Assembly: GCA_035288145.1 (NCBI GenBank)
Contig: DATEAX010000028.1
Coordinates: 1-52,593, forward strand
Direction: 5' to 3'
Length of the DNA: 52,593 nucleotides
From: Patescibacteria group bacterium
GTDB lineage: Bacteria; Patescibacteriota; UBA1384; UBA12157; JAENIV01
Both the position numbers and the translations under genes were made by a program. Under the pieces are notes generated by a model. It was given only the letters and a program-made list of their open reading frames with translations, ran no database searches and had not been told where the DNA came from. This document shows, one piece after another, positions 4,418 through 33,387 of the stretch; position 1 is the stretch's first letter; each line of letters begins with the position of its first letter.

Positions 4418-4423
4418 TATATT

Positions 4424-4523
4424 TCTATTATCCCTTATTTCCGCTCCAGCGTAAATAAGGGATAGGATATAACTATCTTCGATTCTACCATATCCCAACC
4501 ATAAAATCAAACCATAAAATCAA
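4424..4523 (-). repeat. dispersed module copy A: promoter-like TTGATT-17-TAGAAT plus REP-type hairpin (with 13-nt tandem duplication of the -35 part)
   Basis: ~85% identical by eye to 12069-12148; hairpin TCCCTTATTT/AAATAAGGGA 4431-4462 around core CCGCTCCAGCGT 4441-4452; accataaaatcaa x2 at 4498-4523. Confidence 0.75.
4482..4510 (-). promoter_or_regulatory. sigma-70-like promoter inside module A, reading into tsaB
   Basis: minus strand TTGATT (4510-4505), 17-nt spacer, TAGAAT (4487-4482). Confidence 0.45.
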
Positions 4524-4556: not shown

Positions 4557-5039
4557 CTATTTTTCCACATACGTACGTTTTTTAATAGATATTTCCCTAA
4601 TATTTTCGCTGATGTGTTTAAATCTTATATAAATAGTATTTTTTGGTAATATTTTTTTTATTTTTTCTGCCCACTCGATGACCATGATTGCATCTTTCCG
4701 ACCCCAGTAATCCTCAATGCCGGCAGATTTAATCTCTTCGATTTTTTCCAGGCGATAGGCATCTACATGAATAAGTTTCCTAACCATATTGACTACACCT
4801 CGGAGGTGTAGTTTTGGTCGTAAAATGTTATATTCTCTTAGTACTACGAAAGTTGGACTGGTGATTGGCTCTTGGATGCCTAACCCTTTAGCCAGCCCTT
4901 TGACAAAAGCCGTTTTGCCGCTACCTAATTCGCCAATGAGACCGATGACTTCGCCGCCTCGCAAGTTTTTGGCAAAAATTTGTCCAAATTTTTCCGTCTC
5001 GGCGGCGCTAGGTGAAATCATCGCCAAAACTTTCTTCAA
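4557..5039 (-). CDS. tsaE: tRNA t6A biosynthesis ATPase TsaE
   Basis: Walker A GELGSGKT, TSPTF, HVDAYRL. Confidence 0.9.
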   Translation of the reverse strand: MKKVLAMISPSAAETEKFGQIFAKNLRGGEVIGLIGELGSGKTAFVKGLAKGLGIQEPITSPTFVVLREYNILRPKLHLRGVVNMVRKLIHVDAYRLEKIEEIKSAGIEDYWGRKDAIMVIEWAEKIKKILPKNTIYIRFKHISENIREISIKKRTYVEK

Positions 5040-11922: not shown

Positions 11923-12068
11923 GGTCAGCCTTCCTCCTTGCGTTTGTGAGGTACGCCTCCTCCATTAGCTCCTTAGAGCTTAGCCGGTTAGAAACCCATC
12001 TATCTGGCATTTCCAACCACTTAGGCCCCAAGGAGTTTTTTGAAGGTATATAACCAAGGTTCTATGGT

Positions 12069-12148
12069 TCTATTATCCCTTATTTCCGCTCCAGCGTGAA
12101 TAAGGGATAGAACTTCATTATCTTACCATATCCCAACCAAAAAATCAA
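12069..12148 (-). repeat. dispersed module copy B: promoter-like TTGATT-17-TAAGAT plus REP-type hairpin
   Basis: aligns with 4424-4510; hairpin arms 12076-12084/12099-12107 around core CCGCTCCAGCGT 12086-12097; polX stop TGA lies inside the -35 hexamer. Confidence 0.75.
12120..12148 (-). promoter_or_regulatory. sigma-70-like promoter inside module B, reading toward the 11922 orphan
   Basis: minus strand TTGATT (12148-12143), 17-nt spacer, TAAGAT (12125-12120). Confidence 0.4.
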
Positions 12149-13863
12149 GACCTTTGGCTCCATTTTAAGAGCGAGTTCGCATTAAGGGTATTGATGATAT
12201 CCTCTTTTCCCAACCATCCCCGCCGCGCCACCGCCACCCCGAAGCGCATTAAATCGAAGTGATGGGCCTGGTGGGAATCGGTATTTACGGCAAATTTCAC
12301 GCCAAAAGTTTTCGCCTCTTTGCAAAGAGTGTCTTTAAGGTCTAAGCGATTGGGAAAGGCGGAAATTTCCAAAGCCGTTTGGTGTTTGGCCGCTGCCTTA
12401 AAGACCTTCTGCCAATCAACTTCGTATGGTTCGCGTTGGCCGATAATTCGCCCTGACGGATGACCGATGATATCCACATGGGGATGAGCAACCGCTTTCA
12501 AAAGTCGCTTGGTCATTATCTCCCTGTTTTGATAAAAGCTCGTATGGACTGAAGCGGTGACAATATCGAGCTTTTCCAGCATCCAATCCTTGATATCTAA
12601 ATCGCCGTTGGCTTTAATATTGACTTCAACCGAGGAAAGAATTTTCAACTTTGGGTGGGCTTTTTGAACAGTTTCGATTTCCTTCTGCCTTTTTTCTAAA
12701 GCTCTTTCATCCAAACCGTGAGCCACGCCCAGACCGACGGTGTGGTCGGAAATACAGATATATTGATACTCGAGTTTCTCGGCGATTCGCGCGATTTCCG
12801 AAATCGTCAAATAGCCGTCCGACCAGTTGGAATGGACATGGAGATCACCTTTGATATCTTCAAGCATGATAAGCGTCGGTAAGTTATTTTTTAAGGCGGC
12901 TTCAATTTCCCCTTGATTTTCCCGGAGTTCGGGCGGAATCCAAGCCATTTTTAAAAAACCATAAAAATCTTTTTCCAAGGAAAATTTATATTTTTTTTTG
13001 CCGACATTGGCCCCATGCTCGGATAAACTTTTGTTGATGCTTTGGGCATAAGTTCTTAAAGCGACATTGTGCTCTTTGGAGCCGGTGAAGTGCTGAAGCA
13101 AAGAACCGTATTCCTCTTCTGGAACAATTTCCAAATCAATTTGGGCGCCTCGAGAGTGAATGATGGTTGATTTGGCCGAACCCTTTGCAAGAACTTCTTT
13201 GACGGCCGTCAGCTTAGTAAAGTGGTCAATCACCTTTTCCGATGTAGGCGAAGTGGCGACGATATCGACATCGCCGACGGTCTCTCTCATCCGACGAAGC
13301 GACCCGACGAAATCCACTTTGCCGACTTCGGGAATTTTTTTGAGTTCTGAAACAATTTCTTCGGCAATCGGCAGGGCTTCCGTTAGGAGCATTCTGCCGG
13401 TCATTCTTTTAAGGATTTCAATTCCTCGCAGGATATTGGCCGCGGTTTTTTCTTTAAAAATTTTTTTTGCCTTGCCTTTTTTAATCTTTTGAGCTAAATC
13501 TTCAATGTCCCGGGCCTTAAGTTCGTGAGCAATTATTTGAGCTGTTTTCGGACCAATGCCGGGGATTTGTAAAAATTCGACTTCGGAGACCGGAACATCT
13601 TTTTTGATTTCGTCGAAATATTGAAGCTTGCCGGTTTTTAAGAGTTCTTCAATTTTCTCGGCAATTGACTCGCCCACGCCGGGAATATCGTTAAGGGCTT
13701 TAAGACCGCCTTTTTTATAAACATCAATCATCTCGTCGGCATAATTTTCGATGGTCTCGGACGCCCGCTCGTAAGCAATAATCCGAAATCTATCCCGTTC
13801 GTCTCCGAGTTCTAAAATTTTGGCGATTTGAAAAAGAATTTTTCCGATTTCTTTATTGGTCAT
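12145..13863 (-). CDS. polX: family X DNA polymerase with C-terminal PHP domain (PolX)
   Basis: HhH motifs GVGESIAEKI / GIGPKTA, GSLRRMRETVGDVDIV, PHP motif GDLHVHSNWSDG; ATG at 13863 (TTG 13869 in track). Confidence 0.9.
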   Translation of the reverse strand: MTNKEIGKILFQIAKILELGDERDRFRIIAYERASETIENYADEMIDVYKKGGLKALNDIPGVGESIAEKIEELLKTGKLQYFDEIKKDVPVSEVEFLQIPGIGPKTAQIIAHELKARDIEDLAQKIKKGKAKKIFKEKTAANILRGIEILKRMTGRMLLTEALPIAEEIVSELKKIPEVGKVDFVGSLRRMRETVGDVDIVATSPTSEKVIDHFTKLTAVKEVLAKGSAKSTIIHSRGAQIDLEIVPEEEYGSLLQHFTGSKEHNVALRTYAQSINKSLSEHGANVGKKKYKFSLEKDFYGFLKMAWIPPELRENQGEIEAALKNNLPTLIMLEDIKGDLHVHSNWSDGYLTISEIARIAEKLEYQYICISDHTVGLGVAHGLDERALEKRQKEIETVQKAHPKLKILSSVEVNIKANGDLDIKDWMLEKLDIVTASVHTSFYQNREIMTKRLLKAVAHPHVDIIGHPSGRIIGQREPYEVDWQKVFKAAAKHQTALEISAFPNRLDLKDTLCKEAKTFGVKFAVNTDSHQAHHFDLMRFGVAVARRGWLGKEDIINTLNANSLLKWSQRS

Positions 13864-26759: not shown

Positions 26760-26839
26760 TCTGAATCCTTACTTTGCTACTGCAAAGTTGAGTTTAACAA
26801 AAAAGAAGGCCAAGTAAAAGTCCTGCCCTGCCGGTACAG

Positions 26840-27624
26840 AGGGGACGGTTCTCTTTTTATCTTATGTTTGATATTTTTCTAATCTCTACCCAAAATGATG
26901 CTGAATTTTTCGGGTTTCATTATCTCTCTGATGAATCGAACCCCAAACCCGCCTTAAATAACTCGAAACAACCAAATCCCCAACAATCAACTTTTCATAG
27001 GATTCCTGTCTATCTTTTTGGTTTTTACCAAGACCTTCATAAAAAATATCCTCTGTGAGTAGTATATTTTTGTCGCCCAGAACATAAAATCGATAACTCG
27101 AATAACGATATTCTTCAGGATTAACGACTAAACCTTTTCTGACCGGATTTAGTTCAATATATTTCCCGCACTGAATAAAATATTCGTCTTTACCAACCGG
27201 CTGGCTCTTAAACCTATCTTGCCAAAAATGGCCGACCCATCTATATTTTCTTTTGTAATAATGAAAATAAGCTAAATTAATTTTCTTCATAAAAAGCGAA
27301 AAACTGTGAGCTTTTTGGGTTTTCATAAGCATATGGACATGGCTGGGCATTAAACAATAATGAAAGAGATCGAACGGCAATTCATTCTTGTACTTCGACA
27401 TCAAATCGAGATAATAACGATAATCGTCATCTTTTTTAAAAACGAAATTTTTGTTATTTCCCCTTGTCATAATATGATAATAACTACGTGACAAGAGTAA
27501 TCGCGGCGGTCTTGGCATAGATCCAATATAACACGAAGTTAAGTAAAAAATATCAATGTCCATGGTAAAAGAGAACCGTCCCCTAATAGCGTCCCCTAAT
27601 AGTAGAATATTCACGCTGGAGCGG
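26840..27624 (-). mobile_element. REPtron-like unit 1: RayT/IS200-like Y1 transposase gene bracketed by an 18-bp perfect inverted repeat plus REP-like core
   Basis: AGGGGACGGTTCTCTTTT 26840-26857 and its exact reverse complement 27567-27584; tandem CGTCCCCTAATAG x2 27577-27602; core ACGCTGGAGCGG 27613-27624. Confidence 0.7.
26886..27518 (-). CDS. REP-associated tyrosine (HUH-Y1) transposase, RayT/IS200-like
   Basis: YHIMTRGN, HUH motif PSHVHMLM, YIELNPVRKGLV, YRYSSY; likely start MPRPPRLL at 27518. Confidence 0.85.
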   Translation of the reverse strand: MPRPPRLLLSRSYYHIMTRGNNKNFVFKKDDDYRYYLDLMSKYKNELPFDLFHYCLMPSHVHMLMKTQKAHSFSLFMKKINLAYFHYYKRKYRWVGHFWQDRFKSQPVGKDEYFIQCGKYIELNPVRKGLVVNPEEYRYSSYRFYVLGDKNILLTEDIFYEGLGKNQKDRQESYEKLIVGDLVVSSYLRRVWGSIHQRDNETRKIQHHFG

Positions 27625-27652
27625 GATTGGGGGATAAACATTGAAACTCAAC

Positions 27653-28558
27653 TTACTGATACTTCTTCAAATTTTCCGCGTGTTCCTCTGCGGTCCGGGA
27701 ATAAACCGCATGGCCGTCTTCTTTATGAAAAAAGTAGAGAAAGCCATCCTTTTGAGGATGAAGGACAGCTTCAATTGATTTGATGCCGGGATTGGCGATC
27801 GGACCCGGGGGGAGCCCGGGATTCAAGTAAGTATTGTAAGGCGAATTGAGTTTATAATCAGCAAGGGAAATTCTCTCCCAGCTTCCTTTGGCATATTGGA
27901 TTGTCGGATCGGCTTCCAGTTTGATATTTTTCTCCAACCGATTTAAGTAAACACCGGCGATTTTGGCTCGGTCTTCATCAAATTTGGCTTCCCGTTCAAC
28001 AATCGAGGCCAAAATTATTGTCTCGCGGGTGATTTTCATTTGGGCCGTCTTTTTATTAAAATTATCAAGCATTTCCCGCCGGATGTCCTCCGGTTTGGCA
28101 TCGGGAAGAAAGCGGTAGGTGTCGGGAAATAAATAACCTTCATCTGCCGAGGCCGCCTGTATCAACTGACCAGCCTTAATGATTTTTTTATTGGCCAACG
28201 CCTCGTCAATTTGGGTCAAGCGCCAGCCCTCGGGAATGGTGATTAAATATTCCGAGGTCTTGCCGGAAACTAAAATAGCCAAAATTTCTTTAATGCTTTG
28301 GCCGGGTGATAATTTATAGACGCCGACCTGAATTAATTCGCCTTTGAGTTTGATATACAAAGTAAAAACATTCGCCGAAGGAATGATGCCGGCACTTTCA
28401 AGATTTCCGGCAATTTCCCTGGTGCTTTGACCGGAACGAACGATAAAATCGCGGGGTTCGCCTCGCCCTTTCTTATTGAGTAAATAATAAAAATAAATTC
28501 CCAGCAAGATAATGCCAAGAAGGATTATCAAGATGATGATGAAGAAAAGTTTTTTCAT
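27653..28558 (-). CDS. mltG: endolytic murein transglycosylase MltG (YceG-like)
   Basis: N-terminal TM, LysM-like segment, ASIVEREA, YNTYLNPGLPPGPIANPG. Confidence 0.9.
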   Translation of the reverse strand: MKKLFFIIILIILLGIILLGIYFYYLLNKKGRGEPRDFIVRSGQSTREIAGNLESAGIIPSANVFTLYIKLKGELIQVGVYKLSPGQSIKEILAILVSGKTSEYLITIPEGWRLTQIDEALANKKIIKAGQLIQAASADEGYLFPDTYRFLPDAKPEDIRREMLDNFNKKTAQMKITRETIILASIVEREAKFDEDRAKIAGVYLNRLEKNIKLEADPTIQYAKGSWERISLADYKLNSPYNTYLNPGLPPGPIANPGIKSIEAVLHPQKDGFLYFFHKEDGHAVYSRTAEEHAENLKKYQ

Positions 28559-32603: not shown

Positions 32604-33387
32604 AATTACCCCGCTCCTGGAGCGGGGTTAAAAATGGTTAAATATGTTATGATAAGAGTATGAAAAGAGCAGTTGGGTTAGTTACCGGAGAAGTCTATCA
32701 TATTTTTAATAGAAGTATCGTTGATTATCGGATATTTAATAATGATGAAGAATATTTCAGAATGATGAATTTACTGAAATACTATCAAATCAGAAGTGAA
32801 ATTAAATTCTCTGAATTTATTCAATTAAAACAGATTGAGGGATATGGTTTTGACAGATTTTTTGAAATCATTTCCAAAGATAAAGAAAAAGTTGTACAGA
32901 TTATAGCTTACTGTCTTATGCCTACCCACTTTCACTTAATCCTTAAACAATTAGCTGAAAAAGGAATTTCATCTTATATGGCAAACACACTAAATAGTTA
33001 TACACATTACTTTAACATGAAACACAGAAGAAAAGGTCCTTTATGGGAGAGTAAATTCAAAAACGTCTTGGTAAATAATGACGAACAATTGATCCATCTG
33101 ACAAGATATATTCATCTAAATCCTGCCACTGCTTTATTAACTGAAAAACCAGAACAATGGTCATTCTCTTCATATAATAAATATTTATCAACATCGTGCT
33201 CAACTTCTACGCTTTGCCAATATAGTGATATTTTAGATATTAAAACATCAGAGTACAAAAAATTCGTAAATGATAGAGTTTCATATCAAAGAGAATTAGC
33301 CAAAATCAAAAATTTATTACTGGATTAAACCTTATTCTGCCCCCTTACCTATTACCTACCACGCTCCTGGAGCGGGGTAAATGGTTC
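32604..33387 (+). mobile_element. REPtron/IS200-like unit 2: Y1 transposase gene flanked by direct copies of a palindromic REP-like sequence
   Basis: ATTACC..CGCTCCTGGAGCGGGGT..AAATGGTT at 32604-32638 and 33351-33387; palindromes centred on T32618 and T33368. Confidence 0.7.
32660..33328 (+). CDS. REP-associated tyrosine (HUH-Y1) transposase, RayT/IS200-like
   Basis: YHIFNRS, HUH motif PTHFHLIL, RYIHLNPATALL, WSFSSY. Confidence 0.85.
   Translation: MKRAVGLVTGEVYHIFNRSIVDYRIFNNDEEYFRMMNLLKYYQIRSEIKFSEFIQLKQIEGYGFDRFFEIISKDKEKVVQIIAYCLMPTHFHLILKQLAEKGISSYMANTLNSYTHYFNMKHRRKGPLWESKFKNVLVNNDEQLIHLTRYIHLNPATALLTEKPEQWSFSSYNKYLSTSCSTSTLCQYSDILDIKTSEYKKFVNDRVSYQRELAKIKNLLLD

Follow-up and report, generated by a model that had tools for sequence, protein, structure and literature searches.

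Contig DATEAX010000028.1 of the Patescibacteria assembly GCA_035288145.1 (52,593 nt, analysed at its full length and called the window below) carries, in the spacer between mltG and mreB, a compact unit of 745 bp at positions 26840–27584, which we refer to as unit 1. It holds one gene on the minus strand, with its ATG at 27518 and its stop at 26886, and the gene is enclosed by a perfect 18-nt inverted repeat (26840–26857 and 27567–27584). In an initial annotation made from the sequence, unit 1 was described as REPtron-like, a REPtron being a gene for a RayT-type transposase set between inverted repetitive extragenic palindromes (REPs). The repeat, a perfect 13-nt tandem duplication at 27577–27602 and a 12-mer at 27613–27624 that recurs in modules at 4.4 and 12.1 kb were all found again here and are non-random; the nature of these features and the kind of element to which unit 1 belongs are the subject of this analysis.

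Pfam, NCBIfam, PDB, alignment and fold comparisons all identify the 210-amino acid (aa) product of the gene as an HUH/Y1 tyrosine transposase-like protein with the motif H60-V-H62 and Y120. A 251-aa version starting at 27641, present in a mechanical list of open reading frames (ORFs), was rejected since its frame would cross the repeat and 30 out of 30 aligned homologues begin with MPRxxR. Most protein searches were run with a 209-residue query lacking the first Met, in which the three residues are numbered H59, H61 and Y119. The profile comparison proposed with the initial annotation gave a match of the protein to Pfam Y1_Tnp (PF01797) with an E-value of 6.8e-17, and the sole PDB sequence match was the Escherichia coli TnpA-REP protein (4ER8). 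In that alignment, HVH lies opposite HMH and KYIELNPV opposite DYIYINPV, so that the HVH and YIELNPV motifs noted initially both stand; H60, H62 and Y120 are invariant in an alignment of 31 sequences whose mean column identity is 70%. In a Gottesmanbacteria homologue (locus L024, 5001–5627), H-V-Y replaces the H-u-H metal-binding motif, while the inverted repeats and a duplication at the repeat end are kept.

Among NCBIfam profiles, REP_Tyr_transpos (NF047646) was nearest, with 75.2 bits and a cut-off of 80, compared with 22.3 bits against a cut-off of 55 for transpos_IS200 (NF033573). An AlphaFold model built from the 31 sequences (pLDDT 79, with a helical C-terminus of low confidence) again gave 4ER8 as the best PDB fold match (E 1.2e-9, TM 0.74), and the IS608 and ISDra2 transposases followed at about 4e-5. 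The protein is thus of the TnpA-REP/RAYT (REP-associated tyrosine transposase) class, as the initial annotation had held, and not of the IS200 class.

Within this class, Di Nocera, De Gregorio and Rocco (2013, BMC Genomics 14:522, PMC3733652) described TIRtrons, in which a RAYT-like gene lies between terminal inverted repeats (TIRs) that have no relation to REPs. BLASTP comparison with the alignment in Additional file 5 of that study matched 13 TIR-associated enzymes (TIRYTs) at E-values of 6e-27 to 2e-42. The main-group TIRYTs (pfs 148A, cps 4446, sml 1152, gbm 2474 and others) showed 31–38% identity at E 1e-30 to 2e-42, the best match having 37% identity and an E-value of 2e-42; five REP-associated RAYTs reached only 1e-9 to 4e-7, with 23.5% identity to E. 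coli b228. An N-terminal signature, MPRxxR...H....RGNN, is common to the window protein and the TIRYTs. By these sequence comparisons, the protein is much nearer to the TIRYTs than to the REP-associated RAYTs, and we call its gene a TIRYT gene.

The two ends of unit 1 are formed by the copies of the inverted repeat. The downstream (3') copy, AGGGGACGGTTCTCTTTT at 26840–26857, begins 28 nt past the stop codon and points its outer end, GGGGACGG, towards mreB; the upstream (5') copy at 27567–27584, its exact reverse complement, lies 48 nt ahead of the ATG. Further inside, an 11-nt block at 26868–26878, TTGATATTTTT, is 100% complementary to a block at 27546–27556 (AAAAATATCAA on the plus strand), and the complete repeat is therefore two-part and about 39 nt long, consisting of a perfect 18-nt tip block and a perfect 11-nt inner block. 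A search of the window with the 18-mer returned the two ends and no further copy, even with 3 mismatches allowed (2 matches, 0.07 expected). Neither end folds better than shuffled sequence on either strand (z-scores of −0.5, +0.16, +0.89 and −0.39), whereas the same test gave z −5.2 for the hairpin of the 12-mer modules and −4.6 for the palindrome of a second Y1 unit in the window, both described below. Rfam showed no known RNA family in or near unit 1. On the C-rich strand, the tip CGTCCCC starts with CGTC, in the window (27577–27584) as in all related loci; the second REP superfamily of Di Nocera, which has no known transposase, carries CGTC as its tag, and the agreement may be a coincidence.

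Relatives of unit 1 were collected by scanning one genome per prokaryotic species, which yielded 29 loci whose encoded proteins are about 58–72% identical to the window protein, plus one at 41%. Their hosts are Berkelbacteria, CPR2, Gottesmanbacteria, Woesebacteria, Nealsonbacteria, Microgenomates, Saccharibacteria-labelled metagenome-assembled genomes (MAGs), unclassified Patescibacteria and one Omnitrophota. Nearly every one of the 29 loci has (A)GGGGACGGTTCTC(TTTT) as the longest inverted repeat enclosing its gene, and a tip block stands at the equivalent place in 28 of them; it precedes the ATG by about 50 nt and follows the stop by about 35–45 nt, with tip-to-tip lengths of 726–872 bp. 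The 18-nt block is conserved at 76–100% per column, compared with only about 60% identity of the encoded proteins. Since the 18-mer is common to homologous loci at like distances from the gene, it is best described, from these alignments, as the conserved end of an element family rather than as a repeat that evolved within this genome, and not as a genome-specific REP.

The inner block behaves differently. At positions 29–39 of the repeat, the two ends of one element are 74% identical, whereas identity between elements is 45%, and none of 5000 permutations reached the observed covariation (p<0.0002); the inner block is thus element-specific. The family as a whole is large: at least 763 homologues were found at E ≤1e-5 in a protein collection, mostly unnamed or labelled 'transposase' or 'hypothetical protein', and homologues from the candidate phyla radiation (CPR) number hundreds in the sequence databases. 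In a library clustered at 50% identity, two full-length representatives (61 and 55% identity) are all that stand for this CPR clade; the next relatives there have at most 49% identity, and 10,620 clusters match at E ≤1e-10.

The 13-nt tandem duplication at 27577–27602, CGTCCCCTAATAG present twice, was recovered by direct-repeat search and consists of the final 8 nt of the 18-nt repeat (CGTCCCCT) followed by AATAG from the flank. Tip-plus-flank duplications of this kind, which we call stutters, were scored in all loci as repeats of at least 8 nt that start within the last 8 nt of the inverted repeat, take in at least 2 nt of flank and recur further out. Of the 59 element ends, 25 had a stutter, whereas the rate among 2495 control positions taken from these loci was 1.2%. 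Examples are AGCGGCAGAGGGGACGG twice in L003, TAGCAAGACTAGGGGACG twice in L016, CCCCTAGGT(T) twice in L007 and, in L021, CCGTCCCCTAAAGGGTCCTGT twice followed by a partial third copy. In 21 of the 25 cases, the tip contributes no more than 8 nt to the duplicated unit, the modes being 8, 7 and 5 nt; the tip part of the window stutter was scored as 7 nt in this count, which begins at the CCCC run. The 13-nt duplication beside unit 1 is one instance of a family-wide stutter. Replication slippage may be the source of the shorter stutters at the C-run. For the window's 13-nt repeat slippage was considered and found unlikely, as no microhomology borders the copies.

The gene also appears to have its own start signal. 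A putative extended −10 box, TGTTATATT, can be read from the sequence on the minus strand at 27525–27533, ending 6 nt before the ATG, and TATAAT-like boxes occur at the equivalent place just ahead of the ATG in most related loci; a consensus promoter scan did not list the box at 27525–27533. Unit 1 thus probably has its own promoter, and a transcript starting from this box would be leaderless or nearly so. No terminator-like site was found in unit 1, and transcriptional read-through into mreBCD is therefore likely preserved.

Unit 1 sits co-directionally between the YceG/MltG gene (27653–28558, by Pfam), which adjoins it, and a flank encoding MreB, MreC and PBP2 (by Pfam), with an ORF without Pfam match at the MreD position. 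Among the loci compared, this neighbourhood is peculiar to the window: mltG adjoins the unit in none of the 29 related loci, and a fragment of mreB was seen in L028 only, about 4.7 kb off. Two Berkelbacteria contigs syntenic with the window were reached through the protein of the second Y1 unit (unit 2). One of them, L037, has the order PBP2-mreD-mreC-mreB, a 94-aa ArsR-like helix-turn-helix (HTH) gene, mltG-ruvX...ftsA...Y1 (unit 2)-alaS, and its mltG–mreB spacer contains no Y1 unit, no repeat and no 12-mer, in agreement with the initial view that unit 1 is inserted there. An empty-site junction cannot be drawn at base level, because the L037 spacer, besides containing a different gene, has diverged too far. 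The ArsR-like gene (L037, 4131–4415) itself occupies the spacer, into which accessory genes seem to have inserted on repeated occasions. In the window, an outer perfect 11-nt inverted repeat, AAGTTGAGTTT at 26785–26795 and AAACTCAACTT at 27644–27654, encloses the whole mltG–mreB spacer, possibly by chance.

A maximum-likelihood tree of the proteins is at odds with the organism labels, the MAG labels being themselves uncertain. The Berkelbacteria rows, those of the window and of three other loci, are spread over three or four places of the tree, and Berkelbacteria locus L004 pairs with a Saccharibacteria-labelled MAG with support of 100/99. Diverged copies were found in the same genome twice, three in one and two in another. 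Scattered sites, a mixed tree and multiple copies fit rare movement or transfer of the whole unit. Solo right ends, comprising the repeat and about 25–40 nt of internal sequence and in some cases stuttered, were also observed 0.3–2 kb from complete units (L001 near 3317, L003 near 4602, L018 near 40, L022 near 6233 and L026 near 3792).

Taken together, these results make it probable, and we are fairly confident, that unit 1 is a TIRtron: a 745-bp unit in which two-part terminal inverted repeats enclose one TIRYT gene and, probably, a promoter for it. Several observations weigh against this assignment. Quentin et al. (2018, PMC6006769) equate TIRYTs 'probably' with subclass 2.1 of TnpA-Y1, whose members have a C-terminal extension with HTH similarity (Bac_DnaA_C, HTH_23 or HTH_28), and a C-terminal HTH was not detected in the window protein, for which Pfam at E ≤0.1 gives Y1_Tnp alone; the protein is accordingly filed as a TIRYT with no assignment to subclass 2.1. 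It is about 20–30 residues shorter at the C-terminus than most TIRYTs. The tip GGGGACGG agrees with the published GGGGWSAS at 7 of 8 positions, with G for A at position 7. The start points of the stutters are scattered across several positions, and no single clean cleavage site is therefore implied. Finally, the window has one copy, the copies in other genomes are diverged, and no transposition or excision event was seen: in the contigs of four metagenome runs, the unit is always in place, with zero differences and no joint that would mark an empty site (weak evidence, as contigs hide rare variants). With a single copy here and diverged copies elsewhere, activity would be low at best.

If unit 1 is a TIRtron, the TIRYT would recognise both ends via the tip and inner blocks and would nick within or beside the GGGGACGG tip. 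The whole unit would then move or be transferred rarely and in one piece, akin to an insertion sequence of low activity, and repeated nicking and rejoining at the tip could leave short tandem duplications behind, the 13-nt repeat included. It is tempting to regard the stutters as natural footprints of this chemistry, namely a nick, a short extension and rejoining at the tip, although we hold this only tentatively and would lean towards doubting it. According to such a scheme, the enzyme might nick inside GGGGACGG (on the C-rich strand, A^C^CGT^CCCC) and stay on the 5' end, polymerase would lengthen the 3' end by a few bases into the flank, and the enzyme would then rejoin the strands, much like a rolling-circle Rep protein that terminates too early. 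Alternatively, a staggered break with fill-in could give rise to the stutters. If the footprint scheme is true, comparative sequence alone would map the cleavage region of the TIRYT enzyme class, and TIRYTs would be active nick-and-rejoin enzymes in present-day CPR genomes. In the literature searched, neither tip-plus-flank stutters nor a co-varying inner block have been described.

Outside unit 1, the window contains the promoter-plus-hairpin modules to which the 12-mer belongs. Two of them, about 90 nt long and about 85% identical, lie at 4418–4513 and 12063–12151 upstream of minus-strand genes and combine a near-consensus minus-strand promoter (TTGATT-17-TAGAAT with TG) with the strong hairpin mentioned above, in whose loop the 12-mer is found. 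The 12-mer, ACGCTGGAGCGG, occurs at 27613–27624 and, on the opposite strand, at 4441–4452 and 12086–12097 (3 matches, 0.17 expected), and similarity around these sites reaches 30 nt at 83–87%. The site next to unit 1 is a partial third copy of the module (27608–27637, plus strand) that lies in the flank, outside the element, and reads left arm, loop, four right-arm bases and then a TAGAAT box, in an orientation opposite to that of the other two. It abuts the stutter and is about 5 nt from the stuttered end. Insertion of unit 1 into a complete promoter module was considered and rejected, since the missing −35 half is absent beyond the other side of the element; most likely, unit 1 just landed beside a worn module copy. 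A lone tetranucleotide GTAG had been noted initially and is present at 27602–27605, where it is not significant. It could not be placed as a REP tag: it belongs to the TAGAAT box, outside the inverted repeat and 8 nt from a 4-bp mini-palindrome, and no equivalent exists at the other end of unit 1.

A metagenome scan with the module hairpin pattern found three contigs of the Joint Genome Institute (JGI), all of them this locus. An extra contig in three of the runs (X1, X3 and X4; 1774, 2777 and 2228 nt, at similar depth) carries two inverted module hairpins about 700–730 nt apart and shows no close DNA kinship with unit 1 or unit 2. One JGI contig, Ga0209323_10062221 (L032), lacks window positions 4679–4768 and is otherwise more than 99.8% identical; this 90-nt population indel is inside or beside a minus-strand gene.

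Unit 2 (32604–33387) contains the second Y1 gene of the window on the plus strand (32660–33328), between palindromes. Its position, ftsA...Y1...alaS, is kept in two other Berkelbacteria contigs (L033/L036 and L034/L037), where the flanks carry the same palindrome, ACCCCGCTCC-W-GGAGCGGGGT, and a compensated variant, AACCCACCCC-W-GGGGTGGGTT, flanks the unit-2 homologue of a more distant Patescibacterium (L035). To judge from these sequences, unit 2 behaves like a classical RAYT, apparently one of vertical descent whose REP-type hairpins have evolved along with it. The 12-mer family resembles its palindromes, the shared pattern being CACGCT[CCT]GGAGCGGG; the right-hand copy of unit 2 reads CACGCTCCTGGAGCGGGG and the flank of unit 1 CACGCT---GGAGCGGG. 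The upstream palindrome copy in L033 stutters as well (TTACCCCGCTCC twice), and the alaS frame of the window ends inside the right-hand palindrome (33352–33384), so that its last codons are repeat-derived.

With these elements in place, the REPtron proposal for unit 1 can be weighed. It would make the enzyme a RayT that acts on dispersed REP-type substrates, the 12-mer modules at 4.4 and 12.1 kb, with its own gene between inverted REPs, and the part of it that concerns a RayT-class enzyme between inverted repeats stands, as the protein is in the TnpA-REP class. A partial module about 5 nt from the stuttered end, and a possible 8-bp stem between the module left arm and the repeat tip, with one mismatched position (a fold that is not significant), also speak for a connection. 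However, the ends of unit 1 remain unfolded by the test that picks out the module hairpin and the unit-2 palindrome, they are common to some 29 other genomes rather than specific to this one, and no extra 18-mer is dispersed in the window. The NF047646 score falls short of its cut-off. A search for the 12-mer around the 29 related units gave one 1-mismatch match in 245 kb, and the motif resembles the unit-2 palindrome, which co-varies with the unit-2 Y1 family in other genomes. The modules are thus a hairpin family separate from the ends of unit 1, contrary to the initial linkage of the two, unit 2 is the better candidate for any tie to the 12-mer family, and we regard a REPtron at unit 1 as very improbable. 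Still less credence can be given to an ordinary IS200/IS605-type insertion sequence that moves as a single strand by 'peel and paste' through subterminal hairpins: the shared Y1_Tnp domain and a fold significantly similar to that of the IS608 and ISDra2 transposases are what such an element would show, but TnpA-REP matches better by sequence as well as by fold, the NF033573 score is far below its threshold, the ends are inverted repeats lacking significant hairpins and no identical copies were seen.

A different alternative is that the Y1 protein has been domesticated and serves the host, for example in DNA processing or regulation, the gene being immobile and the repeats serving as operator or binding sites. 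Such a gene could well be intact, single-copy in the window and identical across four metagenome runs, and strongly conserved as a family; TnpA-Y1 genes of class 2 generally occur in few copies, and autonomous mobility has not been demonstrated for them (PMC6006769), and the neighbouring unit 2, syntenic in three Berkelbacteria, behaves in just this way. Unit 1, in contrast, has no conserved neighbourhood in the 29 loci and is absent from the syntenic L037 site, its protein tree is scrambled relative to organism labels, and some genomes carry diverged multiple copies and solo ends. Moreover, the repeat ends are conserved across phyla besides the gene, as expected if they are needed for propagation. 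We therefore consider domestication unlikely, and retain the TIRtron assignment for unit 1.

With this assignment, a gene that is very common in the CPR receives a corrected annotation: it belongs to a TIRtron and is neither an IS200 transposase gene nor that of a REP mobiliser, and PGAP-type models narrowly miss it. Concrete substrates in oligonucleotide form and a prediction of the cut region follow from the invariant 18-mer, from the inner block peculiar to each element and from the limits of the stutters. Within one genome, the window moreover shows a useful contrast, with a TIR-flanked, non-syntenic, transposon-like unit 1 and a hairpin-flanked, syntenic, RAYT-like unit 2. A literature search returned no paper that combines CPR or Patescibacteria with RAYT or IS200, in line with the initial remark that REP/RayT systems are not known to be established in CPR-type genomes, and no biochemical study of TIRYTs was found in the literature searched.

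Compared to elements of the IS200/IS605 family such as IS608 and ISDra2, unit 1 shares the HUH/Y1 core and the format of a small single-gene unit of about 0.7 kb. Those elements, however, have asymmetric ends with distinct left and right hairpins and no terminal inverted repeats (PMC6006769), and often occur in many identical copies. The REPtron, exemplified by E. coli TnpA-REP (RayT, 4ER8) with its flanking REP/BIME (bacterial interspersed mosaic element) sequences (Nunvar 2010, PMC2817692; Ton-Hoang 2012, PMC3333891; Messing 2012, PMC3479197), is closer in enzyme class, fold, HUH and Y...NP motifs and the presence of inverted bracketing repeats. Yet REPs are hairpin palindromes that carry a GTAG tag and number tens to hundreds of copies, whereas the ends of unit 1 are non-palindromic, shared between genomes and unrepeated in 52.6 kb, and its protein is only 23.5% identical to E. 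coli RayT and misses the NCBIfam equivalog cut-off.

The TIRtron provides the closest parallel, with an HUH/Y1 gene, non-REP terminal inverted repeats, fixed gene distances and low copy number. The repeats are GGGG-tipped in both cases; the published TIRs, many but not all of which share GGGGWSAS, stand at similar distances from their genes (PMC3733652), and GGGGACGG is found here. Unit 1 differs from the published examples in the length of its protein (210 aa versus about 216–238 for main-group TIRYTs), the alignments with which end at residues 141–184. In place of a detectable HTH-like C-terminal domain, and of the ...LG..F...IE...RGRP tail of the TIRYTs, the window protein closes with a conserved WGS..QRYNE.RKI tail only. 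Its 18-nt tip is almost invariant across the whole clade, whose proteins have only about 58–76% identity, and its host belongs to the CPR, a group outside both papers (PMC3733652, PMC6006769). Unit 1 is a real but ordinary CPR member of a kind of element known since the TIRtron was named in 2013.

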